A stretch of 64,000 bases of DNA, taken from contig CAYIWY010000004.1 in the NCBI GenBank assembly GCA_964367355.1, forward strand, positions 35,976 through 99,975, written 5' to 3'. The notes below the pieces were generated by a model. The model ran no database searches. It saw only the letters and a program-made list of their open reading frames with translations, and had not been told where the DNA came from. The stretch is from an uncultured Gammaproteobacteria bacterium (GTDB lineage Bacteria > Patescibacteriota > Microgenomatia > Woykebacterales > RBG-16-39-9b). Shown piece after piece: positions 4,278 through 58,445 of the stretch. Position 1 is the stretch's first letter. Each line of letters starts with the position of its first letter. The translations under genes were made by a program, and so were the position numbers.

Positions 4278-5669
<1,392 letters not shown>

Positions 5670-5745
5670 TCACGCGAGAGTCTTTCAGAAACCTGTGATT
5701 TCTGAATTACGAAGCGGGTTATAACTTGTACTACTTTTCCTTTGT

Positions 5746-6138
5746 TCATTTTAAAAAACCTCCATTTATTAATATCGGCATTACGTGAGTTTTAACGTGG
5801 GAGCCTAACTCTAAAGTTGAATCAGTACTATACCAGATTGCTTCTTCGATTTCTTTACCATCGGGTTTTATATTCTCACCGATATTTGCCGAAAAAATAT
5901 AAGTGTCCCACTCTTCCAGAGTTTCCGGGTTTTTGTAAAGATAGTTGGCAACAAGCTTAATTGATGAGTCATCAACTTCAGTACTCAGTTCTTCCATAAC
6001 TTCACGAGTTAAGGTATCTTTAGTCGTTTCGCCTTCTTCCCCCCGACCTCCTGGAAGTTTGTAAACTGTTTCATCGACCTTCCGAACAAGAAGAACTTTA
6101 TTATCTTTTATGTGTGTTAAGTAACTTCGTCGTTTCAT
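5746..6138 (-). CDS. NUDIX hydrolase
   Basis: Nudix box GGRGEEGETTKDTLTREVMEELS. It sits 2 nt downstream of atpG on the same strand. Confidence 0.85.
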   Translation of the reverse strand: MKRRSYLTHIKDNKVLLVRKVDETVYKLPGGRGEEGETTKDTLTREVMEELSTEVDDSSIKLVANYLYKNPETLEEWDTYIFSANIGENIKPDGKEIEEAIWYSTDSTLELGSHVKTHVMPILINGGFLK

Positions 6139-6139
6139 A

Positions 6140-6997
6140 TTAATTTAATGCTATCGCTGCTGTAGAGATATCCAAAATTTCATTGGTAATATTGGCTTGT
6201 CTTACTTGGTTATAAGCGAGAGTCAGATCATCGACCAATTCAGAAGCATTATCCGAAGCATTTTTCATGGCCACCATTCGAGCCGAGTGTTCACTAGCCG
6301 AAGAATCTAAAAGAATTTGGTATATTTCCATCAATATATAATGTGGCAAAATAGCTTCCAAAACCAAGTCGGCACTTGGTTCAAAGAGATATTCATCAAC
6401 AGTCAAATCAGAGCTGTCAGAAAGTTTATTTATTATTTCTAGATCAATTATCGGAAAAAGTTGGCGAATAATTGCCTCTTGTTTCAGAGTTGAGTGAAAC
6501 TGGGTGTAGATCACGTGAATTTTATCAAATTCGTTACTTAAAAAAGCTTCGGTTAGAAAACGGGTAATTGTCCCAGCAAATTCCAAGGTTGGTTTGTCTA
6601 AAAGTTCAAAATCAGCTGCTAGTGGTTTGGCAGAGCGGCTGACAAAAACCTGGCCTTTTTTACCAAGTGTAATAAATGAAACATTTCCAGTTACGTCAAG
6701 AGATTTTTTGAAAAGATTAGAATTTAATGAACCACACAAACCGCGGTTGGTAGTAATCAACAGTATTCCTTGTTTTTCGTTTTTTTCTCGAGAAAGTAAA
6801 GGGTGAGAAGTCAAATCAATTTTAGTTGAAATATGTTGCAACACGTCATTCATCAAGGCCGAGTAGCGTCGCCCTTTAGTTGCTTGATCTTGGGCGCGGC
6901 GCATTTTTGCAGCTGAAACCATCTCCATGGCTTTGGTCACCTTGGAAGTATTTTTAATGGATTTAATTCTTTGTCTTAGTTCTTTAGTTCCTGCCAT
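6140..6997 (-). CDS. atpG: F1F0 ATP synthase subunit gamma
   Basis: N-terminal MAGTKELRQRIKSIKNTSKVTKAMEMVSAAKMRRAQ and conserved C-terminal helix. Confidence 0.9.
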   Translation of the reverse strand: MAGTKELRQRIKSIKNTSKVTKAMEMVSAAKMRRAQDQATKGRRYSALMNDVLQHISTKIDLTSHPLLSREKNEKQGILLITTNRGLCGSLNSNLFKKSLDVTGNVSFITLGKKGQVFVSRSAKPLAADFELLDKPTLEFAGTITRFLTEAFLSNEFDKIHVIYTQFHSTLKQEAIIRQLFPIIDLEIINKLSDSSDLTVDEYLFEPSADLVLEAILPHYILMEIYQILLDSSASEHSARMVAMKNASDNASELVDDLTLAYNQVRQANITNEILDISTAAIALN

Positions 6998-8877: not shown

Positions 8878-10353
<1,476 letters not shown>

Positions 10354-12972: not shown

Positions 12973-13095
12973 ATTTACCTCCTGTGACTTCACGACCGGT
13001 TCTGAAATTGTACAAATTTTAACACAATAAAGAAGAAAAGTCAATACTATAAGCCGCTTCGCGTCTTGCGTCCAGAAAATGCTGGACTAAGGTTA

Positions 13096-13767
13096 TTAAT
13101 TGAGGACAATTGTGAACTCGCCTTTGTGGGATTTACCGGTTAACTGTTTTCTAACCTCATTAATCGAACCTGTTAAAACTGTTTCATGGATTTTGGTTAA
13201 TTCGCGTTGAACTGAAACTTGAGATTCCGGAAAGACTTTTGATAATTCTTCAAGTAGTTTATCAACCCGATGGGGGGATTCATAGAAAATAATACTGGTT
13301 GGCAGTTTATTTTTAATTTCAACTAAAGTTTCTAATAACTTTTCTCGTTTGCCGGAAGTTTTTGGCTGGTAGCCAACAAAAAGAAATTTGTCTGTCGGCA
13401 GGCCTGAAATCGACATCGCCGCAATCGCGGAGGCGGGTCCGGGAATTGTTTTTACATCAATACCTTCTTCACGAGCTGCTCGAACTAACTTAAAACCAGG
13501 ATCAGAGATTAGCGGTGTTCCGGCGTCAGAAATTAAAGCAATGTTTTCACCATTTTTTAACCTTTGAATTATTTCTGGGATACGGGTTAGCTCGTTGTAT
13601 TCGTGAAATGACAACAAGGGTTTTTTTATCTTATAATTATGGAGAAGTTGGCCAGAATGTCTGGTATCTTCACACAAGATTAAGTCGACTTCTTTTAGAG
13701 TTTCAAGTGCTCGAAGAGTAATGTCTTTAATATTTCCAATTGGTGTAGCAACAATGTACAAAGCCAT
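13096..13767 (-). CDS. rsmI: 16S rRNA (cytidine1402-2'-O)-methyltransferase
   Basis: MALYIVATPIGN...LILCEDTRHSGQLL, the tetrapyrrole-methylase fold typical of RsmI. Confidence 0.85.
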   Translation of the reverse strand: MALYIVATPIGNIKDITLRALETLKEVDLILCEDTRHSGQLLHNYKIKKPLLSFHEYNELTRIPEIIQRLKNGENIALISDAGTPLISDPGFKLVRAAREEGIDVKTIPGPASAIAAMSISGLPTDKFLFVGYQPKTSGKREKLLETLVEIKNKLPTSIIFYESPHRVDKLLEELSKVFPESQVSVQRELTKIHETVLTGSINEVRKQLTGKSHKGEFTIVLN

Positions 13768-13773
13768 AAGATT

Positions 13774-13815
13774 GAATCAAGAATCAAGAATCAAGAATCA
13801 AGAATCAAGAATATA
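13774..13815. repeat. tandem heptamer (GAATCAA)x5 plus a degenerate sixth copy, abutting the -10 TATAAT
   Basis: Perfect heptamer tandem array in the divergent rsmI / response-regulator intergenic region, read directly from the sequence. Confidence 0.9.
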
Positions 13816-13834
13816 ATTGTGCTATTATACTCGT

Positions 13835-14206
13835 ATGGACTCCCAAAAGAAAATTTTAATGGTTGAAGATGACGAATTTATCCGTGAGCTTTATCAAAGA
13901 CAGTTGGAACAGGCTGGATTCAATATCCAGTCGACTGCTTCAGGCCAAGAGGGTTTAGACTTACTTGATAAAAATGACTATGATTTGTTAATGTTGGATT
14001 TGAATATCCCGGATGTTTCTGGGTTTCAAATTTTAGAGCATCTCCAAAAAAACCCAAAAGAGAGTATGCAAATATTGATTTTGAGTAATGTTGCTCAAGA
14101 TGAATATATTCAGAAGGGTATAGATATGGGTGCCCAAGCTTTTGTAATTAAAAGTACTTACACCCCGAGTCAAGTTGTGTCTCAGGTTAAAGATCTCTTA
14201 GGCTAA
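13835..14206 (+). CDS. single-domain response regulator (CheY-like receiver)
   Basis: KKILMVEDDEF...LLMLDLNIPDVSGF...KSTYTP. Start chosen at MDSQ; the ORF track begins at 13817. Confidence 0.75.
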   Translation: MDSQKKILMVEDDEFIRELYQRQLEQAGFNIQSTASGQEGLDLLDKNDYDLLMLDLNIPDVSGFQILEHLQKNPKESMQILILSNVAQDEYIQKGIDMGAQAFVIKSTYTPSQVVSQVKDLLG

Positions 14207-20200: not shown

Positions 20201-23032
20201 ATGAAAGATAAAATAATAATTCGCGGTGCCTCCGAACATAATCTAAAAAATATTAATCTCGAAATACCCAAAAATTCCCTAGTTGTATTCACTGGCATAT
20301 CCGGGAGTGGAAAAAGCTCCCTTGCTTTTGACACAATCTATGCGGAAGGGCAAAGACGTTATGTCGAGTCGCTTTCAGCTTACGCTCGGCAATTTCTGGG
20401 GTTGATGGAAAAGCCAGATGTTGACCAAATTGAAGGCCTTTCGCCAGCAATTTCAATTGATCAAAAAACAGCTTCAAAAAATCCCCGTTCTACGGTCGGA
20501 ACTATTACTGAAGTTTATGATTACATGCGGCTTTTGTGGGCAAGAGTCGGTGTGCCGCATTGTTCGATCGACGGTAAAGCAATTAAGGCCCAAACGGTTC
20601 AGGAAATTGTCGACCAAATTCAAAACGAAATAAAGGAAAGCAAAAAAGAAAAACTATCGTTTATTCTTGCTCCGATAATTAAAAGTCGAAAAGGAATCTA
20701 TGAGGAAGTCTTCCGCGATTTGAAGAAAAAAGGCTTTGCTAGAGTACGAGTTGATAAAAAGATTTATGAATTGGACGAGACGCCAAGTTTAGATCGTTAT
20801 AAAATTCATGACATCGAAGTTGTCATTGACCGTCTTGCAGACCTGGTCGATGACCAAAGGGTAACGGAATCAGTCGAAACCGCTTTGCGCTTTGGTGAAG
20901 GTTTGGTTACTCTAGCGACCGAGGAGGGGGTTGATAAAACTTTTTCTGAAAAATTTGCTTGCCCGGAACACGGGCTTTCGTTGCCAGAGTTGGAACCAAG
21001 AACATTTTCCTTCAATAGCCCGCAGGGAGCTTGTCAGACCTGTGGGGGCTTGGGCGTAAAGCTAACAGTTGATCAAGATTTGGTAATACCAAATAAAAAC
21101 CTTTCAATTACAGAAGGGGCGATCCATCCTTGGAGTCGAATGATCTCGCATGATTCTTGGTCATCACGCAGACTGGACGCACTCGCTGTGCATCTGAACT
21201 TTTCACTTTCATCACCAATAAAAGATTTATCCAAAGAAGTGTTAGATATAATTCTTAACGGAAGTACAGAGGAAACGTTTCGGGTTTCAGGTCGCAATCG
21301 GTTTGGTCGGTCAATAACCTTTGATACTAGTTTTGAGGGTGTTGTCTCGGAATTGCTCAGACGCCATCGTGAAAGTGACAGTGATTGGGTCCGGAGGGAA
21401 ATCGAAAAATATATGCGCGAGGAAGTTTGCGATAATTGCAACGGCAATCGTCTCCGCAGTGATGTTCTCTACATCACGGTAGCTAACAAGTCTATTGTTG
21501 AGGTTGCAAACTATCCAGTAAGCACGGCTGCAAATTGGTTTTCGAAACTTTCGCTAAATTCAAGGGACCAACTAATCGCCAAGCAAATTCTCAAAGAAAT
21601 AAACAGCCGGCTGCGGTTTTTAATGGACGTTGGTTTGAATTATTTGACGATCAATCGTGCCAGTGCAACTCTTTCTGGTGGAGAAGCCCAAAGAATTCGT
21701 TTGGCCAGCCAAATTGGTTCTGGGTTGTCGGGGGTACTTTATGTTCTCGATGAACCAACAATCGGACTTCATCCAAAAGACAATGACAAGTTGATAAAGA
21801 CGCTTTTGGATTTGCGTGACCTAGGAAATACGGTGATTGTTGTCGAGCATGATCGGGAAGTTATGCTAGCCGCTGATTATCTGGTTGACATTGGTCCTGG
21901 CGCAGGGGAACACGGCGGCAGAATAATTGCTCGTGGGACTCCCTCGGAAGTAATTGCCGATCCTAACTCTCTGACCGGGCAATATTTAGCTAACAAAAGA
22001 AAAATCGGGGAAATTAAAACAAAAAGAGTCGTGAATGAAAATGTTTTGAAAATAGTTGGCGCAAGTCAGCATAACTTGAAAAACATTGATGTCGAAATTC
22101 CCCTAAGTAAGTTTGTTGCTGTCACTGGAGTTTCGGGAAGTGGTAAATCGACTCTGGTTGAAGATATTTTGAAAAAAGCACTTTCTGCTAAATTTTATCG
22201 TTCCAAAGAAAAACCAGGTGTTCATAAAGAAATTATTGGAACCGAACATATCGACAAGGTAATTGATATCGATCAGTCCCCAATTGGTCGGACTCCGCGA
22301 AGTAATCCGGCCACGTATACCGGAGCCTTTACCAATATTCGGGAGCTTTTTTCCTCCACTCCTGATGCTAAGGCGAGAGGTTACAACGCTGGACGATTTT
22401 CTTTTAACGTCAAAGGTGGGCGTTGTGAGACCTGTGAGGGTGATGGAGTAATAAAAATCGAGATGCAGTTTTTACCGGATGTCTACGTAACTTGTGAAAC
22501 CTGTTTGGGTAAACGTTACAACCGAGAAGCTTTGGAAATATTCTACAAAGGGAAAAATATTGCCGATATATTAGATATGACAATTGCCGAAGCAACAGAG
22601 TTCTTTGATAAAATTCCGTCAATCAACGCTAAATTTAAGACATTACTTGAAGTAGGTTTGGGTTATATGCGTCTTGGGCAAGCAGCGACAACCCTTTCGG
22701 GTGGGGAAGCGCAAGGAATTAAACTTGCTGCCGAGTTGTCAAAAAGAAGTTCTGGGAAAACGCTTTATATTCTAGATGAGCCGACCACTGGTTTACATTT
22801 TGCCGATATTGATAATTTGCTCTCGGTGCTGCATCGATTAGTGGAGATTGGTAATACAGTTTTAATAATTGAGCACAATTTGGATGTAATAAAGAGCGCT
22901 GATTACATTATCGATCTTGGTCCCGAAGGTGGGGAAAAAGGTGGTTACTTGGTCGCCGCCGGAACGATCAAAGAAATTATCGCCAATAAAAAAAGTACTA
23001 CCGGAGAATATCTTGCTAAGATGAAACTTTAG
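20201..23032 (+). CDS. uvrA: excinuclease ABC subunit A
   Basis: Two ABC ATPase modules (GISGSGKSSL and GVSGSGKSTL) plus zinc-finger cysteine pairs. Confidence 0.95.
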   Translation: MKDKIIIRGASEHNLKNINLEIPKNSLVVFTGISGSGKSSLAFDTIYAEGQRRYVESLSAYARQFLGLMEKPDVDQIEGLSPAISIDQKTASKNPRSTVGTITEVYDYMRLLWARVGVPHCSIDGKAIKAQTVQEIVDQIQNEIKESKKEKLSFILAPIIKSRKGIYEEVFRDLKKKGFARVRVDKKIYELDETPSLDRYKIHDIEVVIDRLADLVDDQRVTESVETALRFGEGLVTLATEEGVDKTFSEKFACPEHGLSLPELEPRTFSFNSPQGACQTCGGLGVKLTVDQDLVIPNKNLSITEGAIHPWSRMISHDSWSSRRLDALAVHLNFSLSSPIKDLSKEVLDIILNGSTEETFRVSGRNRFGRSITFDTSFEGVVSELLRRHRESDSDWVRREIEKYMREEVCDNCNGNRLRSDVLYITVANKSIVEVANYPVSTAANWFSKLSLNSRDQLIAKQILKEINSRLRFLMDVGLNYLTINRASATLSGGEAQRIRLASQIGSGLSGVLYVLDEPTIGLHPKDNDKLIKTLLDLRDLGNTVIVVEHDREVMLAADYLVDIGPGAGEHGGRIIARGTPSEVIADPNSLTGQYLANKRKIGEIKTKRVVNENVLKIVGASQHNLKNIDVEIPLSKFVAVTGVSGSGKSTLVEDILKKALSAKFYRSKEKPGVHKEIIGTEHIDKVIDIDQSPIGRTPRSNPATYTGAFTNIRELFSSTPDAKARGYNAGRFSFNVKGGRCETCEGDGVIKIEMQFLPDVYVTCETCLGKRYNREALEIFYKGKNIADILDMTIAEATEFFDKIPSINAKFKTLLEVGLGYMRLGQAATTLSGGEAQGIKLAAELSKRSSGKTLYILDEPTTGLHFADIDNLLSVLHRLVEIGNTVLIIEHNLDVIKSADYIIDLGPEGGEKGGYLVAAGTIKEIIANKKSTTGEYLAKMKL

Positions 23033-23034
23033 AA

Positions 23035-23085
23035 AAAGAAAAGCACAACCAGAGTGGCCGTGCTTTGTTGATCCCGCTCGTTATT
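23035..23085. terminator. hairpin repeat R1 (AAAAGCACAACC...GGCCGTGCTTTGTTGATC)
   Basis: First of four about 50-nt copies (R1-R4). The hairpin folds best as minus-strand RNA and is flanked by A/T runs. This copy directly follows the uvrA stop. Confidence 0.55.
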
Positions 23086-23700
23086 CGTTTCAGCAAGGAC
23101 CAATACAATGACTTCCGGCTCCTTTTAACCGCTTAGCATTTTGCACTCGACGAGCTCTTGCCCTCTCCTTCAACTCTTTGTCAGCTCTCTTCAACCTGAC
23201 CTCAAGAGGTTCCTTGTCCGCTTCAGGTTTCTTCTGCACTTTTCCTCCAGTACTTTGGCTTCTTCAGATCACAAAAACCGTCTGCTTACTGTTCCGGCGA
23301 GGGGCTCGAGATACTTTCCTTCTGGCTGCTCGCTGTTCTTCAACTAATCTTCGCTCAGATTCCCGAATGATTCGATCAATCTTGTCTGGGTTTGCATGCG
23401 AGTTACGATACTTGATCTGTAATCGTTCAGTCGCATTACCTGCCCCCTATGGAAACTTTAAGAAGAATCTATGTGCTGCCCTAACAGTGCGCTCTTGAAC
23501 TCGTCTCCAGTAAGTGTGTCGAGCAGATACGCGTTCTGCTGTGTTCTTACCTTGAGCCAGCTCCGAAGGTCTTTTGTCACCAACTTTAGATTGCCAACAA
23601 TTGACCCAAACAGGTTCTGTAAAAGACATTTTCTCTCCTCGCCTTCTTTTACTTCTTCTCTTGTGTTGATTACCTGCATTTTACTTTCTGGAGTAGCCAA
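23074..23700 (-). pseudogene. frameshifted remnant of a charged, helical protein gene (higher GC)
   Basis: The minus strand yields protein-like segments in three frames (MQVINTREEVKEGEE..., RRLVEEQRAARRKVSRAPRR..., KVQKKPEADKEPLEVRLKRADKELKERARARRVQNAKRLKG). No tyrosine-recombinase motifs were recognised. Confidence 0.25.
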
Positions 23701-23760
23701 AATGCAAACAGCGAATTCTTAAGCTATGCCACTTTTTGGAGTAACCAAAATGCAAACAGC
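23674..23760 (-). promoter_or_regulatory. two tandem copies of a conserved minus-strand promoter (TTGCAT-N18-TAAAAT/TGGCAT)
   Basis: The 22-mer GCTGTTTGCATTTTGGYTACTC occurs here twice and again at 29927-29967. Confidence 0.45.
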
Positions 23761-23836
23761 TAATTTTCAAGATACTTGAGTAACGCTGTGCTACTTTTTG
23801 AAGAAAAATTAAGCAACTGAAAAATTTAAAAAAAAG

Positions 23837-23893
23837 AAAAGCACAACCAAGATTGGTCATGCTTTGTTGATCTCACTCGCTATTTGGTTGTTG
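23837..23893. terminator. hairpin repeat R2
   Basis: Matches R1, R3 and R4. Sits at the 3' end of the minus-strand gene 23894..24112. Confidence 0.55.
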
Positions 23894-24112
23894 TCACATA
23901 TCACCGATCCTAAAGGCTCTGGCAAGCAGGTAAGTTGCAATGCTAAAGAACCCTAATCCGGCTGGAATAAACCCTCCGGCGTACTCTGGTCTGGTCACAG
24001 CCGAAAAAACAAACACGGCAGCTACAACAAAAAACCCGATGGACGGAAAGACTAAAGCTAGCCAACGTTTGTTGACGTTGGTCTCAATTGGAGTCTGTCG
24101 ACATGACCTCAT
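23894..24112 (-). CDS. small two-TM membrane protein (72 aa)
   Basis: GGAGGT site followed by an ATG start; preceded by the conserved GUAGCCGAAAGG 5'UTR motif. Confidence 0.5.
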   Translation of the reverse strand: MRSCRQTPIETNVNKRWLALVFPSIGFFVVAAVFVFSAVTRPEYAGGFIPAGLGFFSIATYLLARAFRIGDM

Positions 24113-24135
24113 TTAATCTACCTCCGGCCTTTCGG

Positions 24136-24336
24136 CTACTTCTTCCGACTACTCGAAACAAGTTCGTACTTAACCCCCGACTTGTCGAGAGCTTCCAGGT
24201 GGGCATCTCCGATAAGGCATACGCCAGCATTGAACCACATTGGTGCTTCTGTGGCAAAGATGACCTCTTTTGCCCTCGAGTATTCCTCGGGTTCGAATCG
24301 AACTCTGGGGCATTCGACCCCTTCTACTCTTGGCAC
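24136..24336 (-). CDS. small hypothetical protein (66 aa)
   Basis: GGAGGAGG site followed by a GTG start. Preceded by a second copy of the GTAGCCAAAAGG-type 5'UTR motif, upstream of the 72-aa membrane protein. Confidence 0.4.
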   Translation of the reverse strand: MPRVEGVECPRVRFEPEEYSRAKEVIFATEAPMWFNAGVCLIGDAHLEALDKSGVKYELVSSSRKK

Positions 24337-24562
24337 TATTTCCTCCTCCAGCCTTTTGGCTACCTTTTTCGCCTTACTTCAATCTTCTTCATCTGGTTCC
24401 AAACAAATTGGATTGTACAAAGTGCAAGAAAGGTGAAAACTCCTCCTAGCACTGGCGTGCCGACATACAAATACCACTGTTCCCAGACTGGCATTAAACC
24501 TCCAACTACCTTCCATCCAATTATTGATGATTACCTTGCATTGTACTTTCAAAAAACCAATT

Positions 24563-24592
24563 TTGCAATTTGTTTGCCCATGCAGCGTATAA
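24563..24592 (+). promoter_or_regulatory. repeated promoter module copy 1 (TTGCAA-N19-TATAAT within TTTGYYYRYRCAGCGTATAAT)
   Basis: The 15-nt core CAGCGTATAAT with upstream TTTGC is shared with copies at about 25811-25840 and 30002-30032. Confidence 0.5.
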
Positions 24593-24616
24593 TAGCTGTA
24601 ACTGAGAGGTTTAGAG

Positions 24617-24820
24617 ATGGAGGTAGAAATGGCAGAGGAGTCCATTGCAGAGCAAAAGTATCAGGCCGCTCGGCGAATCCGATCTATTCTTGGGGTAGTA
24701 GATGACTTCTTCGTTGAACCGACTAAGGATCGCGAAGAGTTAGCACTTCAGCAGCTCGAACAGCTCCCCGAGCGTCTGCGTTCGTACGGTGAGCTGTGCA
24801 GAAAGAGTGAGAAGAGTTAA
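24617..24820 (+). CDS. small acidic helical protein
   Basis: GGAGG site before the ATG. Protein-like composition (MAEESIAEQKYQAARRIRSILGVVDDFFVEP...). Confidence 0.5.
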   Translation: MEVEMAEESIAEQKYQAARRIRSILGVVDDFFVEPTKDREELALQQLEQLPERLRSYGELCRKSEKS

Positions 24821-24849
24821 GCAGTTGACGAAAACCAAGGAGGGTGTTT

Positions 24850-24960
24850 ATGCTATTACTGAGTTCTGGAGATTTGGGTGCCACCTTAGTTGGTATTGTC
24901 TGCGTAGGATTGCTGCTATTCGGTACTCTTGCTCTTGTTATACTGACTAAACACGGATAA
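24850..24960 (+). CDS. 36-aa single-TM peptide (MLLLSSGDLGATLVGIVCVGLLLFGTLALVILTKHG)
   Basis: AAGGAGGGTGTTT site then ATG. It shares this RBS-plus-start context with the 25892 gene. Too short for the ORF track. Confidence 0.4.
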   Translation: MLLLSSGDLGATLVGIVCVGLLLFGTLALVILTKHG

Positions 24961-24977
24961 ACCAAGGAAACATCCCA

Positions 24978-25004
24978 CAAAGGGAAAGAATGCACTCTTA
25001 CCCT
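24978..25004 (+). terminator. repeated terminator module copy 1 (CAAAGGGAAAGAATGCACTCTTACCCT), degenerate
   Basis: Related to the near-perfect hairpin AAAGGGAAAGAATGAACTCTTTCCCTTTC+T-run at 26678-26715. Confidence 0.4.
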
Positions 25005-25204
25005 ACATACCAACGGCTTTCTTCTTCGAGAGAGCCGTTTTCCTTTTTAGTCAACTCTCTGCCAAATAAGCAAGTCAATAGGGTTTAAAGAGATTTATCG
25101 GTTCTAACGATCCAAAAGTAAAATTTTTCTGTGTTAAATGCTTGGAAGTTGACAATACTTGTTGAATTGGTTAAAATACGTCAAGAATCACTACGGAAAG
25201 CGCC

Positions 25205-25741
25205 TCATAAGGTTTTGTCCTTACGAGGTTCTTTCTTTTTATACTCCACTTTATTTTTTAAATCTGAGGCAAATCCCAAGTATTCTGAAGGAAATCCTTT
25301 AAGAAGTGCAGAATATTTTCTCTGGTTTGGTATAAGAATTTTCTCTAGTTTTTTCCGTTTAACGAGATAGTCTACAAGGCAGTAGAAATCACCGTCCCCA
25401 GTGATAATAACCGCCTTATCATAATTACCAAAATCGATCATCGCTTGCAGTACCAATTCTGCGTCACAATTGCCCTTGGTTTTTCCATCTTTATATCTCA
25501 GAACTGGTTTAAAAATAAGAATGTAGCCTTTTTCCTGAAGCGATTTGTATAAATCGGCATTTTCTTCTATGTACCCTAGAAATAAATACGCTTTATCGAC
25601 AAGATACTTATCTGCCAGGTATTTACGAAACCGTAGATAATCAAGTTTCCAACCCAACTCTCTTACCGAAAGGTTTAGGTTTTGACTGTCTATGAAAGCG
25701 AAATTTTTAGACTTTTGTTTCGGGTTTCTGGTTTTTAGCAT
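25205..25741 (-). CDS. NYN / LabA-like domain protein (predicted RNase)
   Basis: FIDSQNL...NCDAELVLQAMID...AVIITGDGDFYCLVDYL, the typical NYN-domain pattern. Confidence 0.75.
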   Translation of the reverse strand: MLKTRNPKQKSKNFAFIDSQNLNLSVRELGWKLDYLRFRKYLADKYLVDKAYLFLGYIEENADLYKSLQEKGYILIFKPVLRYKDGKTKGNCDAELVLQAMIDFGNYDKAVIITGDGDFYCLVDYLVKRKKLEKILIPNQRKYSALLKGFPSEYLGFASDLKNKVEYKKKEPRKDKTL

Positions 25742-25810
25742 TGTTTAGTAATTTTAGCACAAGAGAAAGACCAAGATTTATAGGGAATAACTAAGTAACT
25801 TTGAGAAACC

Positions 25811-25840
25811 TGTAATTTATTTGCTATTGCAGCGTATAAT
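25811..25840 (+). promoter_or_regulatory. repeated promoter module copy 2
   Basis: TTTATTTGCTATTGCAGCGTATAAT. Confidence 0.5.
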
Positions 25841-25891
25841 GGTTGCAACAAGAAGAGATGGAAGTTGGCTTAAAGCCAAGGAGGGTGTCAG

Positions 25892-26104
25892 ATGTTACTG
25901 GCAAGTGGAATCCTATTGATTGCAGTGTGGATGGTGTTTGAGTGGCACTATGGATGGGGCCGAGGACGGGTAGCTCCGCGTGCGTTTGATCTTCGCCAAA
26001 AGTATGGTGATAGGGCCTTGCTATTCCTAATCCCACTGCGATTAGCGATGACAGCAACAGCGGTTGTAGGATTGATCCTCGTTGTCAAATATTTCGGCAA
26101 GTAG
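25892..26104 (+). CDS. small two-TM membrane protein (70 aa)
   Basis: CCAAGGAGGGTGT site and an MLLAS start, paralogous in context to the 24850 peptide. Confidence 0.5.
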   Translation: MLLASGILLIAVWMVFEWHYGWGRGRVAPRAFDLRQKYGDRALLFLIPLRLAMTATAVVGLILVVKYFGK

Positions 26105-26209
26105 TAACTTCTGTCGGTGTCGAAAGACTTAACGTGCGTCCGTTAATCGCACCTTTTGCAGCTCATCGAAAACGAAGGACTGTAGCTGGCGAAAGCCAAG
26201 GGGGAGAGG

Positions 26210-26635
26210 ATGGTCGATCAAGATTCTGTAATCCAATCGATTCGTGATTGGGTGGGACAGCATCGAGCGGTTGCGGAAACTGAAGCGGATTCAATTCTCA
26301 AATCTCTGCAGGAGTTTTGCGAGCAGGTTCTGCAAACTGAGCAAGAAGCTGAGATTTCATTCTCGGCAATTGAGGAAGGTAGGATCCACATACGTGTGAT
26401 GCTTACCTGGCCAGGGATGGACATGTTCGATGCCGATCATTCAACGAGAATGAGGTGGGTCGGGCAATCGTTCAGCATAGTCGAACAAGATAGAGATATC
26501 CACCCTTATCTTGGTTACGTACAAAATGAGTGGAGAGTTGGGTCAACCTTCGCAGACTACACCAAGAGTCACCTTGATTTCCTGGATGCCGAAGAAAATA
26601 AAATTGGGGAGTATGAGTTTATTGGGGTTTGGTAA
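26210..26635 (+). CDS. hypothetical protein (141 aa)
   Basis: GGGGGAGAGG site before the ATG. Protein-like, with higher GC than the surroundings. Confidence 0.5.
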   Translation: MVDQDSVIQSIRDWVGQHRAVAETEADSILKSLQEFCEQVLQTEQEAEISFSAIEEGRIHIRVMLTWPGMDMFDADHSTRMRWVGQSFSIVEQDRDIHPYLGYVQNEWRVGSTFADYTKSHLDFLDAEENKIGEYEFIGVW

Positions 26636-26677
26636 AATGCTAAGCTCCATAACCTAGTGCAATTAGGTAAACAGACA

Positions 26678-26715
26678 ACAAAGGGAAAGAATGAACTCTT
26701 TCCCTTTCTTCTTTT
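26678..26715 (+). terminator. repeated terminator module copy 2 (near-perfect hairpin + T-run)
   Basis: AAAGGGAAAGAATGAACTCTTTCCCTTTCTTCTTTTC. Confidence 0.6.
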
Positions 26716-26818
26716 CTTTTTGTAAACCGTTGCAAATCGCCTACTAATCGACTATAATACGGCTAGTATTACATCGTCTTGTATCGCAAGCGATATAATT
26801 CGACTATACATATATACC

Positions 26819-27859
26819 ATGTTTAAACCTCGCTATACTATTACTGATCGGCTGCTGGCTAATATTAAAAGGATCAATTCTTTGGTAAGCGAACTCAATA
26901 ATAAGCGCTTTCCCTCTGTAGTTTTACTTGAGTTAGAGAGAACTGCTAGAGAAGTTTCTTCCTATGCTTCAACCAGCATTGAAGGTAACCCGCTTCCGTT
27001 AACTGAAGTCAAAAAGATCCTTAAGTCAAAACCTATTTCATTGCGCGATAGTGAAAAAGAAGTCCTCAACTATAACCAAGCTCTTAGGGAATTAAACAGT
27101 GAACTCGATAAGGGAGAAATTCGGCTTTCTTTGAGTCTTGTTTTAGATATTCAAAAACAAGTAACTGAAGGTTTACTGCCTTCTTTTGAATCAGGGCAGC
27201 TGCGCGAAAAGGCGGTAGTTGTCAATGATCCAAGAACTGGTCAGGTTGTTTATTTGCCTCCTGATGCAGCTGAGGTAAAACCGTTAATGGAAGAACTAGT
27301 CGAATTCATTAGTAACAGGACTCAAATCGATCCACTTATTCTGGCTGGTATATTTCACAAACAAATGGTAATTATCCACCCGTTCATGGATGGCAATGGC
27401 AGAACAACACGCCTAGTTACCAAAGTACTGCTGGCAGCCATGGGTTTGAATACCTTTAACCTCTTTAGTTTTGAAAACTACTATAACCAAAATGTCACCA
27501 AATACTTCCAAACAGTGGGGGAGTCTGGAAATTATTATGAACTAGTTGAAAAAATAGATTTTACTCATTGGTTGGAATATTTCACCGAAGGAATTATTGA
27601 TGAACTTCTTCGGGTCGAAAAACTGTTACCTAAGACCGCTATAAGTCCGGAAACTCAGTTAAAACCACATCACTTGAAACTCATCGGGTCTATCCAAGAA
27701 AAGGGATTTATCTCCGACCGAGACTATGCAGAGCTGGTCAAGCGTGCTAAGGCAACGAGAACCCAGGATTTTAAGAAGCTCCAAGAACTAGGCTTAATTG
27801 AGCGCAAAGGCAAGGGCAAGGCAACTTATTATATCTTGAAGGGAGAAAGTAAAATTTGA
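26819..27859 (+). CDS. Fic/Doc family protein
   Basis: Canonical Fic motif HPFMDGNGRTTR; 346 aa. Confidence 0.9.
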   Translation: MFKPRYTITDRLLANIKRINSLVSELNNKRFPSVVLLELERTAREVSSYASTSIEGNPLPLTEVKKILKSKPISLRDSEKEVLNYNQALRELNSELDKGEIRLSLSLVLDIQKQVTEGLLPSFESGQLREKAVVVNDPRTGQVVYLPPDAAEVKPLMEELVEFISNRTQIDPLILAGIFHKQMVIIHPFMDGNGRTTRLVTKVLLAAMGLNTFNLFSFENYYNQNVTKYFQTVGESGNYYELVEKIDFTHWLEYFTEGIIDELLRVEKLLPKTAISPETQLKPHHLKLIGSIQEKGFISDRDYAELVKRAKATRTQDFKKLQELGLIERKGKGKATYYILKGESKI

Positions 27860-28061
27860 GGATTTATACCTAAAAGGATGAGATGCCTTATAAGCTTGTT
27901 TTGTCCTAGCTTAGCCAAACAGATGAATGGGAACACTAGAAACAACCTATAACGGACTTATCACTCATCAAATATAGATATTAACAATTTTGTCACATAT
28001 AAGCAACCTTCAAGCGTGTTTAAACGAGAAAAAGGAAAATAACTTTTGATATAATCCAGTT

Positions 28062-28352
28062 ATGATGAACGAGCCTTCTAAAAGAATGGGGATAATTTTT
28101 GGGTTTTTGGCTCTAGGAATAGCTATCTTATCCTTAGCCTTTATTATTCCAAATACACTTTATTTATTGAAAGTGGGATTTACCATTCAAAACATTTTAA
28201 CTGGAAAACTACCAGAGAATTACGTTACTGGAGATGGATCAACTTTTAATGCTGTTGAGACAGTAATGTGGGTCGGGGGAGTTTTAACCATTCTTTTTTG
28301 TCTAATTTCTACTATTTTATTATTTAAATCCCAAAAGGTTGTAAGGAACTAG
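28062..28352 (+). CDS. small membrane protein (96 aa, 2-3 TM)
   Basis: Hydrophobic segments and its own TATAAT upstream. Confidence 0.45.
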   Translation: MMNEPSKRMGIIFGFLALGIAILSLAFIIPNTLYLLKVGFTIQNILTGKLPENYVTGDGSTFNAVETVMWVGGVLTILFCLISTILLFKSQKVVRN

Positions 28353-28397
28353 TTACAAAGCTAGCTTTTTGTTGGACAATAGTACTTTATAGAAAGA

Positions 28398-28453
28398 GCG
28401 AAGCACGGCCAAGTTGGTCGTGCTTTGTTGATCTCACTCGCTATCGGTTGTTG
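28398..28453. terminator. hairpin repeat R3
   Basis: GCACGGCCAAGTTGGTCGTGC hairpin plus the TTTGTTGATCTCACTCGCTAT tail. Overlaps the 3' end of the 28441..28641 gene. Confidence 0.55.
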
Positions 28454-28641
28454 TTTATCACTGGCTTGGTCTTCGCCTGATCGGTGTCCTTGTCTGAGTT
28501 GCCGCCTTGGGTCAGATATGCTGGTGTTAGAACTTCTCTAAGCTGTCCGATTGGAAGACTATCGATACAGCTGGACCACAGCCTTGGATGGAGATCGCGA
28601 TTCATCCAAAGGTACAACCGCTCAGTTGCGTTACTCTTCAT
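28441..28641 (-). CDS. small hypothetical protein (66 aa)
   Basis: AGGAGAGGAAATA site then ATG, placed immediately after the stop of the 61-aa membrane protein. Confidence 0.4.
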   Translation of the reverse strand: MKSNATERLYLWMNRDLHPRLWSSCIDSLPIGQLREVLTPAYLTQGGNSDKDTDQAKTKPVINNNR

Positions 28642-28655
28642 TATTTCCTCTCCTC

Positions 28656-28841
28656 TTACTCCAGTAAAGTTGCTCTCATACCCCATGCAATTAAAGGGGC
28701 GCCGACAACCATAGCAACTACAGCGAACATCAATCCCACTTCACGTCTTTTTTCGAATCTGACGGTTGCAACCGCAGCCAGACAGATAAAAATTCCCACG
28801 ACCAACGCCAAAGATCCAAGTAGTTTAAGTAGAAGCTCCAA
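28656..28841 (-). CDS. small two-TM membrane protein (61 aa)
   Basis: GGAGGA site followed by a TTG start; preceded by the conserved GUAGCCGAAAGGCGAGGAGG 5'UTR motif. Confidence 0.45.
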   Translation of the reverse strand: MELLLKLLGSLALVVGIFICLAAVATVRFEKRREVGLMFAVVAMVVGAPLIAWGMRATLLE

Positions 28842-28903
28842 TTGATCCTCCTCGCCTTTCGGCTACTTCCGTCCCGTTTGATTATCAATATTATACAACA
28901 TTC

Positions 28904-29281
28904 TTGCTGCTGAGAGGTATAATTATTAAAACAAGAAAAACCGGAGCAATGAAACTTCCAAATTCGGAACAGGCCATCGTTCCTGAAAAGAAATTAACAG
29001 AATATTTACTATCTGAGACTCATGCGGTGGGAAAATTTAAAGCCAGGTTTTTCCGCCGGTTGGGTTTTGACTTGACAAATGCTAGTCTTTTGCAGAAAGA
29101 AATTATGAACCTGGTTCAAGTACAAGACGTAGAGAATATTATACCATCAAATTATGGTACCAAATATATCGTGAAAGGTGCTATCAAGACACCTATTGGT
29201 GAAAGTGTTAGAATAAAAACGGTCTGGATCATTGAGAAAAACCAGACACAACCAATTTTTATTACGGCTTATCCTGTCTAG
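28904..29281 (+). CDS. DUF6883-like protein (putative toxin-like partner of DUF4926)
   Basis: EKKLTEYLLSETHAVGKFKARFFRRLGF pattern recalled for this family, immediately upstream of a DUF4926 gene. Family assignment is from memory. Confidence 0.5.
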   Translation: MLLRGIIIKTRKTGAMKLPNSEQAIVPEKKLTEYLLSETHAVGKFKARFFRRLGFDLTNASLLQKEIMNLVQVQDVENIIPSNYGTKYIVKGAIKTPIGESVRIKTVWIIEKNQTQPIFITAYPV

Positions 29282-29295
29282 GCGAAAAGGAGTAT

Positions 29296-29529
29296 ATGTT
29301 TAAAGAATTAGATACTGTGGTTTTCACTCATAATATTGATAATTACGGCCTTGAGAAAGGCGATATTGGTACAATTGTTCATACTTATGGTGCTGAAAGA
29401 GCTGTGGAAGTTGAGGTGGTGAGAGCTGACGGTAGGACTGTTGCGGTACTTACATTGGAGCCTAATGACATACGTAATATAACAAGGGACGAAATTCTTA
29501 AGGTGAGAGAATTTGCTACCAGTAATTAA
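29296..29529 (+). CDS. DUF4926 domain protein
   Basis: LDTVVFTHNIDNYGLEKGDIGTIVHTY...VEVVRADGRTVAVLTLEPNDIR, a typical DUF4926 sequence. Confidence 0.65.
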   Translation: MFKELDTVVFTHNIDNYGLEKGDIGTIVHTYGAERAVEVEVVRADGRTVAVLTLEPNDIRNITRDEILKVREFATSN

Positions 29530-29651
29530 TTTCCTAATAATGATACCTCTAATCATTTATCAAGGTTCCACTAGCCTTTAACTACTTTGGTTATTAACTG
29601 AATTTTTAATTTTAAGAAAATAATTTAGTAACTAAAGAAATTTAAAAAAAA

Positions 29652-29700
29652 GGAAAAGCACAACCAGATTGGCCATGCTTTGTGTTGATCTCGCTCACGA
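29652..29700. terminator. hairpin repeat R4
   Basis: AAAAGCACAACCAGATTGGCCATGCTTTGTGTTGATCTCGCTC, at the 3' end of the 29739..29879 minus-strand gene. Confidence 0.5.
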
Positions 29701-29738
29701 TTCAGCTGTGAAAGGTTTTTGTTGACCTTTTCGACTAA

Positions 29739-29879
29739 TCATTTGATCTTCGCTTCTCTCACCGAACGTGGTATTCGTCTTTGCGCCTTAACTTTCTTGA
29801 GAAAGGGCTTAACTACTTCCTCAACCCCTTTCTGCACCGAACGTCGAATTTCATCTGGACTAGGTGGCGGATTCGACAT
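29739..29879 (-). CDS. 46-aa basic small protein (MSNPPPSPDEIRRSVQKGVEEVVKPFLKKVKAQRRIPRSVREAKIK)
   Basis: GGAGG site then ATG, preceded by the third copy of the GTAGYCGAAAGG 5'UTR motif and the conserved minus-strand promoter. Too short for the ORF track. Confidence 0.35.
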   Translation of the reverse strand: MSNPPPSPDEIRRSVQKGVEEVVKPFLKKVKAQRRIPRSVREAKIK

Positions 29880-29926
29880 TACCCTTAACCTCCTAAACCT
29901 TTCGACTACTTCCTTTATCGTTATTG

Positions 29927-29967
29927 CCTACATTTTACTTTTTGAGTAACCAAAATGCAAACAGCTA
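29927..29967 (-). promoter_or_regulatory. conserved minus-strand promoter copy 3 (TTGCAT-N17-TAAAAT)
   Basis: GCTGTTTGCATTTTGGTTACTCAAAAAGTAAAAT. Confidence 0.45.
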
Positions 29968-30001
29968 CTTTTCTAAAAATAATTAAGCGACTCTAAGGAA
30001 C

Positions 30002-30032
30002 TTGCAGTTTATTTGCTGCCACAGCGTATAAT
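30002..30032 (+). promoter_or_regulatory. repeated promoter module copy 3
   Basis: TTGCAG-N19-TATAAT within TTTATTTGCTGCCACAGCGTATAAT. Confidence 0.5.
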
Positions 30033-30378
30033 TCAAATAATCAGAGATCAAAAGACGAGAGGAGGTCGAAGCGTGGAGGTTTATTTCCCAGTTATTATCG
30101 AGACTCTGGAAGCTAATGATGGTTTGGTACTTGTAACTTCCTTTGTTGCAGGAAAACCATGGACATTCTGGACCAAAGCAGAAAGTGTGGTTCTGGACTG
30201 TCAGCCACTGGTAAAAGACGTGTTAACAAGAGGTTACAGCGGTTGGGTTAAAGGAACGATCCATTCCCAGAAACTAGGCTTTACTTTTGTTGAAGTAGGG
30301 GATTTTCTAATCCCTGTGTTGCAAGACCTATTGAGAGAGAACCTCGACTTCAAAGTAAACAAGAGGACCGAAGGTTAG
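30013..30378 (+). CDS. hypothetical protein (about 105-121 aa)
   Basis: GAGAGGAGG site then a GTG at about 30073 gives the likely start. Followed by an AAGGGCGACC...GCCGTCCTTTTCTTTTTT terminator. Confidence 0.45.
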   Translation: MLPQRIIQIIRDQKTRGGRSVEVYFPVIIETLEANDGLVLVTSFVAGKPWTFWTKAESVVLDCQPLVKDVLTRGYSGWVKGTIHSQKLGFTFVEVGDFLIPVLQDLLRENLDFKVNKRTEG

Positions 30379-30500
30379 AAAGAACAAGGCATTAACAAGG
30401 GCGACCAATAGGCCGTCCTTTTCTTTTTTAAAACTATTGCAAATTTGGAAAAATCATTTTATAGTATTGCTGTCAGTTTTAGTTACAGACTAATACACAC

Positions 30501-42440: not shown

Positions 42441-42635
42441 ATGGTACTTCAAGTTCTAGGCACAACTCTAATTAAATTTTCAATACTCCTAGTGATAGGA
42501 GGAATTTTGGTGCTTGGTTTAAATCTAAAAGTGCCTATGAAAACGACTCAGGGGACTAGCTTTCAATCTCAAGCTACGGTTTTAACACTAGATTGTAATG
42601 CCGAAGGCCTTTGTGAACTTACTCTGCAAAAATGA
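42441..42635 (+). CDS. small exported/membrane peptide with two Cys (DCNAEGLCELTL)
   Basis: N-terminal hydrophobic helix, polar Cys-containing tail. Placed directly downstream of the ABC-2 exporter pair. Confidence 0.4.
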   Translation: MVLQVLGTTLIKFSILLVIGGILVLGLNLKVPMKTTQGTSFQSQATVLTLDCNAEGLCELTLQK

Positions 42636-42738
42636 ACCTCCGAGGGTTAAAACCCTCGGTTTCATCTCTAGAGTTTCGTTTTCTTCGACCTTCATCCGTG
42701 GATTAAGAATCCACGGTTTTCGGTACGCGAAAATAAAT
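42633..42738 (+). repeat. 100-nt dual-hairpin repeat, copy 1 (CCGAGGGTTAAAACCCTCGG ... CCGTGGATTAAGAATCCACGG)
   Basis: Near-identical to 61706-61811. It begins at the TGA stop codon, and each hairpin is followed by T runs. Confidence 0.85.
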
Positions 42739-46261: not shown

Positions 46262-46370
46262 GTTGGCTGAAATGGATAATCTGAGGCTAAAAAGCTATGG
46301 GGGGACAACGAGATTGAGATAGAACCCTTACTAGACAGTATGATCCTACTATTTAATCAACTAAGAGGTA
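46262..46370. repeat. tRNA-His-derived repeat, copy L (contains a degenerate tRNA-His 3' end ATGGGGGGACAACGAGATTGAGATAGAACCC)
   Basis: Aligns to 47038-47133 and 47985-48035 and to the authentic tRNA-His 3' end TGGGGGGGAGTATGGGACTTGAACCC. Confidence 0.6.
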
Positions 46371-46476
46371 CAAACTTAGTTCTGTAAGGTTAGTTTTTGT
46401 TGGTAGAAAGTTTCAAAATACTCGACCAGAGCAAAGCCACCCTTCAGCAAGCTTTTGATTATGCTACAATTTCCTT

Positions 46477-46710
46477 GTGATTAAATTTACTGAGCACGTA
46501 GAAACTAGACTTGAAGAAAGAAATATTACTAAGGAACAAATTGGTGAAGCCATCGGAAGTCCAGACGTTGTTTTACCAGCAAGGGCAAATCGTTCGATTG
46601 CAATTAAGAAGTTTGAAAATAATTTTCTCAAAGTAGTGTTTATTAAAGATCAAGGTGATATAATCGTGATCACTACTCACTGGATTAGTAAATTGAAACT
46701 TAAGGAGTAA
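46477..46710 (+). CDS. DUF4258 family toxin-like protein
   Basis: FTEHVETRLEERNITKEQIGEAIGSPD...IAIKKF...VVF pattern; paired with a DUF2283 gene. Confidence 0.6.
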   Translation: MIKFTEHVETRLEERNITKEQIGEAIGSPDVVLPARANRSIAIKKFENNFLKVVFIKDQGDIIVITTHWISKLKLKE

Positions 46711-46712
46711 AT

Positions 46713-46940
46713 ATGAACGTTCGTTACGACCCAAAAGCTGATGCAGCTTACATTTATTTAACTGAAAATAAAGGTAGTTCCTCTAATAGTAAAACTAAAG
46801 TGGCTGAGACCAAGGAACTTTCGGATGAAATTTTTGTGGACTACGACAGCGAAGGCCGCCCACTTGGCATTGAAATAATTGGTGTTAAAGATAGAGTACC
46901 CTCTAAAACCCTTCATTTTTTTGAAACCCAAACACGCTAG
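46713..46940 (+). CDS. DUF2283 family protein (antitoxin-like partner)
   Basis: MNVRYDPKADAAYIYL...FVDYDSEGRPLGIEII, the DUF2283 signature. Confidence 0.65.
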   Translation: MNVRYDPKADAAYIYLTENKGSSSNSKTKVAETKELSDEIFVDYDSEGRPLGIEIIGVKDRVPSKTLHFFETQTR

Positions 46941-47133
46941 TTTTTTTAGGCCACGAAGTGGTCGCAGAATGCTTTAGCGATCATTAGATTTCTTAATCGC
47001 AGAGAGCAAAGCGAACTATTGGTTAAAATTGGTTATTATGAGGCTAAAAATCTATAGTGGGACAACGCTCTTGAGATAGAACCCTTACTAAACAGTATAG
47101 TCTTACTATTTAATCAATTAAGATATTCAAACG
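46936..47133. repeat. tRNA-locus-derived repeat, copy M (CCACGAAGTGGTCGCAG ... TTGGTTAAAATTGG ... ATAGTGGGACAACGCTCTTGAGATAGAACCC ...)
   Basis: Its 5' part matches 47896-47990. Its 3' part matches copy L, including the degenerate tRNA-His 3' end. Confidence 0.6.
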
Positions 47134-47166
47134 TAATTCTTTAAAGTTTGGTATAATTGTTTCAAC

Positions 47167-47813: not shown

Positions 47814-47895
47814 GCAACTACTTAAAAACCTCCCACACTTAAGTAAATCTTGAATAAAGGTTTTCTTAGGACAAGTAACTAGCTGAAAGGCTAGT

Positions 47896-48035
47896 TTTTT
47901 TAGTCCACGAAGTGGTCGCAGAACGCTTTATCGATCATTAGATTTCTTAACCGCAGAGAGCAAAGCGAACTATTGGCTAAAATGGTTAAATCTGAGGCTA
48001 AAAAACGATGGGGGGAGCTTGGTATCAAAAAGGGT
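47896..48035. repeat. tRNA-locus-derived repeat, copy R, abutting tRNA-His
   Basis: CCACGAAGTGGTCGCAGAACGCTTTATCGATCATTAGATTTCTTAACCGCAGAGAGCAAAGCGAACTATTGGCTAAAATGG... reads directly into the tRNA-His 3' end. Confidence 0.6.
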
Positions 48036-58397: not shown

Positions 58398-58445
58398 TCC
58401 TGTTATTAAAACTCCTAAATTGTTCCGAAAAACCCCACTATTTTT

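Follow-up and report, generated by a model that had tools for sequence, protein, structure and literature searches.

The window analysed here is a 64,000-nt stretch of contig CAYIWY010000004.1 (assembly GCA_964367355.1). Between uvrA and a histidine kinase gene it carries an island of small open reading frames (ORFs), many of which stand behind the same short leader element. At slightly better than even odds (about 55%), we take this leader to be a portable, lineage-specific translation-initiation element that belongs to a kit framing orphan mini-genes at a uvrA-kinase hot spot. In order, the leader would be built from a GGAAG box rich in purines, in many cases with TAG behind it, a hairpin of 3-5 bp whose loop is GAAA, a strong Shine-Dalgarno (SD) sequence, GGAGG, that adjoins the hairpin and, after another 5-9 nt, a start codon. 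In our best reading it may also mark cassette boundaries, in a manner similar to the promoter-early stem-loop (PeSL) elements compared below.

A recurrent leader before unrelated mini-genes

The motif GTAG(C/T)C(G/A)AAAGG(C/T), with GGAGG 1-3 nt on and then a start codon, was found in four copies, all on the minus strand (c1 to c4, Table 1). In the 64-kb window, the pattern GTAGYCRAAAGGY gave 4 matches against 0.01 expected, a number reached in 0 of 100 shuffles, and a stricter 19-mer of the leader gave 2 matches against 0.03 expected. An initial annotation of this DNA had described a near-identical element before a 66-aa and a 72-aa ORF (o66a and o72), and reading of the minus strand confirmed it as GTAGCC(A/G)AAAGGC(T/C)GGAGG upstream of each. 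The further copies that had been placed before the mini-genes at 28841 and 29879 are likewise present (c3 and c4) and differ slightly. At c1 and c2 the stop of the upstream ORF is the TAG inside the leader, as had been claimed, and the intercistronic spacer is 23 nt at both. This arrangement does not extend elsewhere: it is absent from c3, c4 and the copies of the related metagenome-assembled genome (MAG) GCA_035480955.1 (L058/L145, hereafter L058), and stops lie shortly 5' of the leaders c6, L142b, L148 and L149. The proposed minus-strand operon of two proteins does contain both ORFs, but it probably comprises three, since a 44-aa ORF (o44) stands upstream of them and is equipped with a promoter-like site and with a leader variant that lacks the hairpin, GGAAGGTAGTTGGAGG. 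That a fixed translation-initiation module is reused 5' of unrelated small ORFs was borne out as well. No pairwise similarity was detected among the products of the leader-headed ORFs, and paralogous mini-proteins were therefore rejected as the cause of the shared leader.

About 15 leaders, on both strands and in related strains, make up a family in which c1-c4 are preserved best. When a covariance model was built from c1-c4 and one outside copy, only c1-c4 scored at E<1e-5 in the window. The next two matches (p2 and p3) were also located in the island, on the plus strand and directly 5' of ORFs, and zero copies were found in about 130 kb of non-island DNA of the relatives. Over a 26-nt core, c2 is identical to the leader L058a at 25 positions, and in the alignment of the class B promoter modules the core GCCGAAAGGC is conserved as strongly as the -10 box. 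Across the copies, the purine box and the SD are kept more consistently than the stem.

A known RNA family was ruled out as the identity of the leader, since Rfam 15 returned no family at any copy (window at gathering threshold; 23000-30500 at E<=5). A widespread motif was rejected too. Scanning of GTDB genomes with the leader pattern gave at least 118 matches, nearly all by chance in coding sequence or tRNA/tmRNA bodies or in a tRNA-adjacent terminator of Kitasatospora, and the only true relative among the matches listed was L058. Two matches in a JGI metagenome scan were both due to chance, in coding sequence, while an IMG/VR scan gave 10 isolated matches and no phage contig in which the leader was repeated. 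The terminator that fits the pattern is a conserved hairpin (GAAAGGCCCGGAGGatccgtCCTCCGGGCCTTTC) in Kitasatospora/Streptomyces loci (L008, L026, L079 and others). It lies 3' of a sequence resembling a tRNA 3' end, in 2-3 repeats per locus, and is unrelated to the leader.

Island starts and ordinary starts of the window were then compared between positions -20 and -4. GGAGG was present 5' of 10/18 island starts versus 1/46 ordinary starts (Fisher p=2.7e-6), and GGAG or GAGG 5' of 14/18 versus 5/46 (Fisher p=5e-7). The leader motif itself preceded none of the 46 ordinary starts. The leader thus stands apart from the ordinary genes, and the possibility raised at the outset, that it is merely the local SD consensus, was rejected on these counts. 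In several ordinary genes a TATAAT-like box ends 5-9 nt 5' of the ATG (for instance at 1312(-), 2674(-), 10795(+), 17070(+) and 34951(+)), and the picture suggests that leaderless or SD-less translation may be widespread in this groundwater bacterium of the candidate phyla radiation (CPR). The island genes with recognisable domains (NYN, Fic and DUF6883) also have no SD, and the DUF4926 gene has GGAG only. Taken with the GGAGG bias, this indicates that the SD-led orphan mini-genes form a distinct class. The predicted start regions show the leader supplying SD-led initiation signals to leadered and internal cistrons, and ordinary genes mostly doing without an SD.

The SD-led mini-genes had zero Pfam or PHROG matches. 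The o66a protein retrieved only itself, both in a word-index search of 5.8 billion proteins and in an exhaustive HMMER search, and a protein identical to o72 was found on 13 metagenome contigs, Hainich groundwater assemblies among them. The ratio of non-synonymous to synonymous substitution rates (dN/dS) was 0.09 for o61, 0.43 for o66b and 0.15-0.34 for o49. The predicted mini-genes are real and, where variants exist (o61, o66b and o49), under purifying selection. Small membrane peptides are frequent among the products (o44, o72, o61, those of the 36-aa and 70-aa ORFs, and that of a 61-aa ORF in the relative L142). Soluble charged products are leader-headed as well (o66a, o46, o49, those of the 141-aa ORF and of a 115-aa ORF in L058).

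The uvrA-kinase island and its modules

All leader copies of the window lie inside the island, beyond which homology with the relative L138 resumes at 30437 with 97% identity. The gap between uvrA and the kinase gene measures 7468 nt in the window, 67 nt in both L139 and L140 (UvrA identity 85% and 84%), 70 nt in L152 (78%), 83 nt in L144 (90%), 448 nt in L138 (97%) and 1971 nt in L142 (97%). Since relatives with 78-97% UvrA identity have no island or a different one, the window shows one of the states that this hypervariable hot spot can take. In L138 there is just one cassette, with a class A promoter, the leader variant ATAGCATCCGAAAGGCAAAAGGAG, a 78-aa ORF different from those of the window and a terminator. 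In L142, the same hot spot (4995-6965) is occupied by a different 2-kb island whose mini-gene set overlaps partly: o61 and o66b have homologs there, along with a PhdYeFM/ParE toxin-antitoxin pair and a different 61-aa ORF with two transmembrane (TM) segments behind AAGTAACCGAAAGGCTGTAGGAGG. L058, with a UvrA of 76% identity, has two leader copies and a uvrA without an adjacent island. By UvrA, the best named relatives carry the labels Saccharimonadales (76% identity) and Woykebacteria (about 70%), in agreement with a placement in Patescibacteria (CPR). The flanks are chromosomal (uvrA, uvrB, lexA, ATP synthase and histidine kinase). A phage origin of the island was rejected, as there were zero PHROG matches and its GC content (0.37-0.46) is similar to that of the flanks.

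The kit of the island consists of class A promoters (TTGCAT, 17-nt spacer, TAAAAT), one promoter of class B, promoter repeats on the plus strand, and bidirectional terminators that form one family and show compensatory changes in their stems. A promoter/terminator scan called terminators, among them a strong one at 23865-23838 at the end of the three-ORF operon, and two class A promoters (29961-29932 and 24568-24540).

The modules were found with different ORFs in different genomes. Along 97 nt (75% identity, E 2e-10), the promoter-plus-leader of c3 (28938-28844) has homologs in two modules of GCA_035480955.1, whose downstream genes, a 115-aa ORF and a 70-aa ORF, are unlike that of c3. The 70-aa ORF is a homolog of o49 and ends at a terminator of the island's family. 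The o61/o66b pair, in turn, is preceded by the class B module in the window and by class A promoter repeats with a different leader in L142, and in L138 a class A promoter and a terminator frame the 78-aa ORF. As the leader stands behind two promoter classes and between cistrons, and as the combinations of modules and ORFs differ, modules and ORFs have been reassorted. Comparison between strains shows the predicted modules in different combinations with different ORFs. The idea of a mobile mini-cassette boundary, which the initial annotation had put forward, thereby gains comparative support: the leaders are all in a strain-variable island, and modules and ORFs are combined differently between genomes. 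The shared post-transcriptional control that it had suggested as the alternative is conjectural.

If the leader is an initiation element of such a kit, homologous recombination between conserved modules would swap, add and delete mini-gene cassettes in the PeSL style. The near-identity of the best leader copies would reflect recent copying as well as selection on the core. At c1 and c2, an upstream stop 23 nt 5' of the next start would favour coupled re-initiation.

Several side observations concern the island and its promoters. The class A promoter also occurs in 2-3 tandem units of about 48 nt (window 23683-23774; L142 5450-5640 and 6750-6860), of which the last alone has a good -10 box, TAAAAT, the units before it showing TAGCAC or TAGCTC; the units could be an iteron-like regulator-binding array or a simple duplication product. 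In the class B promoter region each strand has a -10 box, ATTATAC and GTATAAT, at a distance of about 22 nt. A complementarity of 12/13 between the leader and the class A promoter spacer was treated as chance, because it is not conserved in L138 or L142. Divergent from the c3 module lies a DUF6883 + DUF4926 pair (28904-29529, plus strand), which is likely toxin-antitoxin-like. Just past the Fic gene and on the opposite strand, a full-length match to the DUF3800-V RNA of Rfam was obtained (27876-27970, minus strand; 55.7 bits versus a gathering threshold of 37.4), and a DUF3800 gene was not detected in the island. Weinberg et al. 2017 (PMC5737381) list the DUF3800-associated motifs as of unknown function.

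Table 1. Leaders, promoters, terminators and mini-genes of the island, in window coordinates (TM, transmembrane; D1, D5, D6 and D17, repeat families).
Feature	Position	Strand	Remarks
Terminator-family copy	23030..23089	.	abuts uvrA end; common to L138 and L142
Strain-specific island, 7.5 kb	23033..30436	.	from uvrA stop (23032) to conserved region 5' of histidine kinase gene (starts 30501)
o49, 49-aa ORF	23090..23239	-	conserved small-protein family; L058 homolog behind good leader copy
Degenerate leader c6	23240..23266	-	TGAAGAAGCCAAAGTACTGGAGG; 5' of o49
Two tandem class A promoter units + degenerate leader c5	23630..23774	-	units 23774-23731 and 23726-23683; c5 GAAGAAGTAAAAGAAGGCGAGGAG, 23658-23630; 5' of 60-aa ORF; D5, D17
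Predicted operon terminator	23829..23888	-	AAAGCA..CCAA..TTGG..TGCTTT then T run; D1
o72, 72-aa two-TM ORF	23894..24112	-	identical protein on 13 metagenome contigs
Leader c2	24113..24150	-	CGGAAGAAG-TAG-CC-GAAA-GGCC-GGAGG..ATG; core 24139-24127, GAAGTAGCCGAAAGGCCGGAGGTAGATTAAATG; 41.4 bits (covariance model); 5' of o72
o66a, 66-aa ORF	24136..24336	-	GTG start; orphan
Leader c1	24337..24374	-	AAAAAGG-TAG-CC-AAAA-GGCT-GGAGG..GTG; core 24363-24351, GGTAGCCAAAAGGCTGGAGGAGGAAATAGTG; 39.4 bits (covariance model); 5' of o66a
o44, 44-aa one-TM ORF	24360..24494	-	TAG stop inside leader c1; missing from public gene calls
Leader c0	24495..24520	-	GGAAGGTAG-TTGGAGG-TTTA-ATG; purine box and SD, hairpin absent
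Promoter-like site of three-ORF operon	24540..24568	-	TTGCAA, 17-nt spacer, TACAAT; diverged class A promoter
Plus-strand promoter-like repeat	24564..24602	+	D6; other copies 25811-25849 and 30003-30041; back to back with minus-strand promoters
Leader p1	24821..24849	+	GTTGACGAAAACCAAGGAGG, stem broken; 5' of 36-aa TM ORF 24850-24960
Leader p2	25853..25891	+	GGAAGT-TGGC-TTAAA-GCCA-AGGAGG; model match to 25887, 15.9 bits; 5' of 70-aa TM ORF 25892-26104
Leader p3	26170..26209	+	GTAGC-TGGC-GAAA-GCCA-AGGGGGAGAGG; model match to 26207, 16.8 bits; 5' of 141-aa ORF 26210-26635
Bidirectional terminator-family copy	28390..28449	.	D1
o61 and o66b	28441..28841	-	o61 28841-28656 (61 aa), TTG start, two TM; o66b 28641-28441; L142 homologs, 83% nucleotide identity
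Class B promoter + leader c3	28842..28938	-	c3 core 28866-28854, GGAAGTAGCCGAAAGGCGAGGAGGATCAATTG; 5' of o61; whole module homologous to two modules of L058
Terminator-family copy	29645..29704	-	
o46, 46-aa basic ORF	29739..29879	-	behind leader c4
Class A promoter + leader c4	29880..29979	-	TTGCAT, 17-nt spacer, TAAAAT; c4 GGAAGTAGTCGAAAGGTTTAGGAGG, core 29909-29897, GGAAGTAGTCGAAAGGTTTAGGAGGTTAAGGGTAATG; 34 bits; 5' of o46; D5

The hairpin and competing explanations

A conserved hairpin had been expected on folding, and the expectation held in part. The stem has 3-5 bp, and the hairpin is contained in the minimum free energy (MFE) fold of c1, c2 and L058a but not in that of c3 and c4. When 15 copies were aligned, 78% of stem cells paired compared with 66±3.7% in shuffles (2/500), the covariation score was 0.35 compared with 0.16 in shuffles (2/500), and the pairing register was clearly best at slide 0. 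A plus-strand subtype shows compensatory flips (UGGC/GCCA versus AGCC/GGCU), and in c4 and L142a pairing is retained through C-to-U wobble changes. The modelled hairpin probability exceeds 0.9 at c1 (about 0.95), c2, p2 and p3. Support for the hairpin is weak to moderate, several copies being broken. It could be a docking or stacking element beside the SD helix, a determinant of processing or stability, or a protein site. As an insulator that keeps the SD unpaired it was unsupported, since 12-86% of the shuffled hairpins were equal or better in modelled accessibility.

A number of results weigh against the interpretation of the leader as a portable initiation element within a cassette kit. The fold z-scores (-0.8 to -1.4) are not significant, the hairpin is broken in L138, L149, c6 and p1 and absent in c0, and its modelled probability is 0 at c4 and 0.27 at L058a. 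As the both-sided stem changes all come from one subtype, they may represent a single event. Upstream of o49, the divergence of the leader at the orthologous junction is close to the synonymous-site rate. Copies c1 and c2 share only about 25 nt between dissimilar flanks, which is short for homologous recombination, and no presence/absence polymorphism of a single cassette was found among the 13 contigs bearing o72. A simple promoter scan was not enriched, with 15 promoters found versus 13.2 expected in shuffles. It should be further pointed out that we infer the promoter, terminator and initiation activity of the modules from sequence, and that the leader counts in its own genome cover the 64-kb window.

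Unlikely, in our judgement, is the explanation that the similarity is a historical trace of an ancestral cassette that was duplicated serially and is now decaying, the hairpin and the purine box having no function beyond an ordinary SD. The copies do grade from near-identical to degenerate, L138 displays a single-cassette state, and shuffling of the hairpin left the modelled SD accessibility unchanged. However, the core matches at 25/26 positions between c2 and a genome with a 76% identical UvrA although the ORFs are unrelated, it is conserved above the otherwise 75%-identical module, and a stem subtype with compensatory changes exists.

We give the same low weight to a leader that would act as a cis-regulatory RNA, bound by a trans factor (an RNA-binding protein or a small RNA) that co-regulates the mini-genes of the island post-transcriptionally. 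In a CsrA-like version, the GGA of the purine box and that of the SD would be bound, with the hairpin presenting the site. In line with this, conservation is higher for the sequence than for the structure (C7 and A10 never vary), and the GGAAG box persists where no upstream ORF is present (c3, c4 and L058a). Between genomes whose UvrA is 76% identical, core conservation reaches the level of the -10 box. Most good copies also contain a pair of GGA motifs, spaced by about 20 nt, of which one belongs to the SD; the upstream GGA, however, is missing in c1, p1, c5 and L138, and orthologous copies decay at roughly neutral rates. A domain scan of the island proteins found no CsrA domain, and Rfam gave no family match. 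The island does encode an NYN-domain protein with a predicted RNase fold (25205-25741), but leader variants occur in L138 and L142, which have no NYN gene, so a link between the leader and this RNase is unsupported by co-occurrence.

A shade less likely still is a new cis-regulatory RNA specific to a lineage of Patescibacteria, which would be recognised by a dedicated factor or by the ribosome and would serve as a common post-transcriptional switch for mobile orphan mini-genes, in genomes whose other mRNAs would be leaderless or SD-less. The best copy, c1 (24374-24341), contains AAGGUAGCC-loop-GGCUGGA, which may be similar to the base of helix 45 in 16S rRNA plus the beginning of the 3' tail (..AAGGUAGCCGUA...UGCGGCUGGAUCACCUCC), a likeness that could be chance. 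Speculatively, it would point to mimicry of the site of a ribosome-biogenesis or ribosome-binding factor.

It is improbable that the leader is a site of mRNA processing or stability, at which a cut in the purine box or TAG would leave the downstream mRNA with a protective 5' hairpin followed by the SD, and so uncouple the stabilities of the cistrons. Stem-loops at the 5' end and SD-like stabilisers (the ompA and ermC leaders, STAB-SD) are known to protect mRNAs. The layout of a purine box, a hairpin 2-3 nt on and an SD would suit such a site, as would the identical 23-nt spacing of the intercistronic junctions and the hairpin probability above 0.9 at c1, c2, p2 and p3. Against it, the hairpin of monocistronic transcripts would lie about 20 nt from the predicted 5' end and hence not be 5'-terminal unless processed, and in many copies it is weak or broken. 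Very improbable is that the mini-genes are type I toxin-like hydrophobic peptides with the leader as the target of an antisense RNA, for although many products are small membrane peptides as listed above and the islands carry genes of toxin-antitoxin type (Fic, DUF6883/DUF4926 and, in L142, PhdYeFM/ParE), the leader also heads the soluble charged products, and there is no conserved complementary partner, the 12/13 spacer complementarity being absent in L138 and L142.

Relation to known systems and other repeats of the window

PeSLs, known from T4-type phages (Arbiol et al. 2010, PMC2839356; Comeau et al. 2014, PMC4122927), are mobile regulatory cassettes. The island is similar in being a hyperplastic region, rich in small orphan genes, in which short conserved modules (predicted promoters and terminators) recur and would supply expression signals to whatever stands between them. 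At the sequence level, the likeness lies in the class A repeats (D5), the plus-strand repeats (D6) and the terminator family (D1). Close relatives differ as well, by insertions, deletions and replacements whose breakpoints may fall in the modules; neither a circular intermediate nor a single-cassette polymorphism was seen. Unlike PeSLs, the island is located in the chromosome of a CPR bacterium and not in a T4-type phage, its mini-genes have no PHROG match, and its kit adds a translation-initiation leader that also stands between cistrons, with neither promoter nor terminator.

A second comparison is with translational-coupling junctions and engineered bicistronic designs. At c1 and c2 the upstream stop lies 23 nt 5' of the next start, within the SD-carrying element, and a terminating ribosome would thus be delivered onto a standard initiation site. 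In contrast to such junctions, the same leader also heads monocistronic transcripts without an upstream ORF (c3, c4, L058a and L058b). Structured leaders such as the ompA hairpins, STAB-SD and the rpsO and thrS operators have a small structure directly 5' of the SD, as here, but the island hairpin is much smaller and has no known partner or Rfam match. Integrons, like the island, line up small genes, orphans for the most part, at a fixed hot spot of the chromosome, with repeated boundaries and variation between strains. However, the island cassettes have their own promoters and both orientations, their 3' repeats look like intrinsic terminators rather than attC sites, and an integrase or recombinase domain was detected neither in the island genes nor in the Pfam-annotated flanking genes.

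CPR genomes are rich in small orphan genes, and this locus gives them a concrete architecture, a chromosomal hot spot with a reusable kit. The kit has a conserved SD-type leader although the housekeeping genes of the host are largely without an SD. If the modules mediate cassette exchange, the PeSL mechanism would be extended from phages to cellular genomes. In that case the leader or the terminator would also be a handle for finding and tracking strain-variable mini-gene pools in metagenomes. The leader could be a ready-made expression signal for CPR work.

Other repeats were noted elsewhere in the window. The heptamer AAGAATC is repeated five times in tandem at 13768-13815, where it fills the gap between the divergent genes 13096-13767 (minus strand) and 13817-14206 (plus strand). 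A 107-nt repeat with 95% identity lies at 42631-42737 and 61704-61810 and contains two clean hairpins, CCTCCGAGGGTTAAAACCCTCGG and CCGTGGATTAAGAATCCACGG. Its second copy is directly 5' of a gene starting at 61813; the repeat had no Rfam match and may be a shared structured leader. Short repeat families occur at 9608-9629, 13049-13070, 56476-56534 and 58443-58501, and also at 46270-48016. One of these families is CTAAGTCGCTTCGCGCCTTGCGACCACTTCGTGGGCTAAGGATTC, near tRNA-Gln, and another consists of 127-133-nt repeats 5' of a tRNA-His/Arg cluster.

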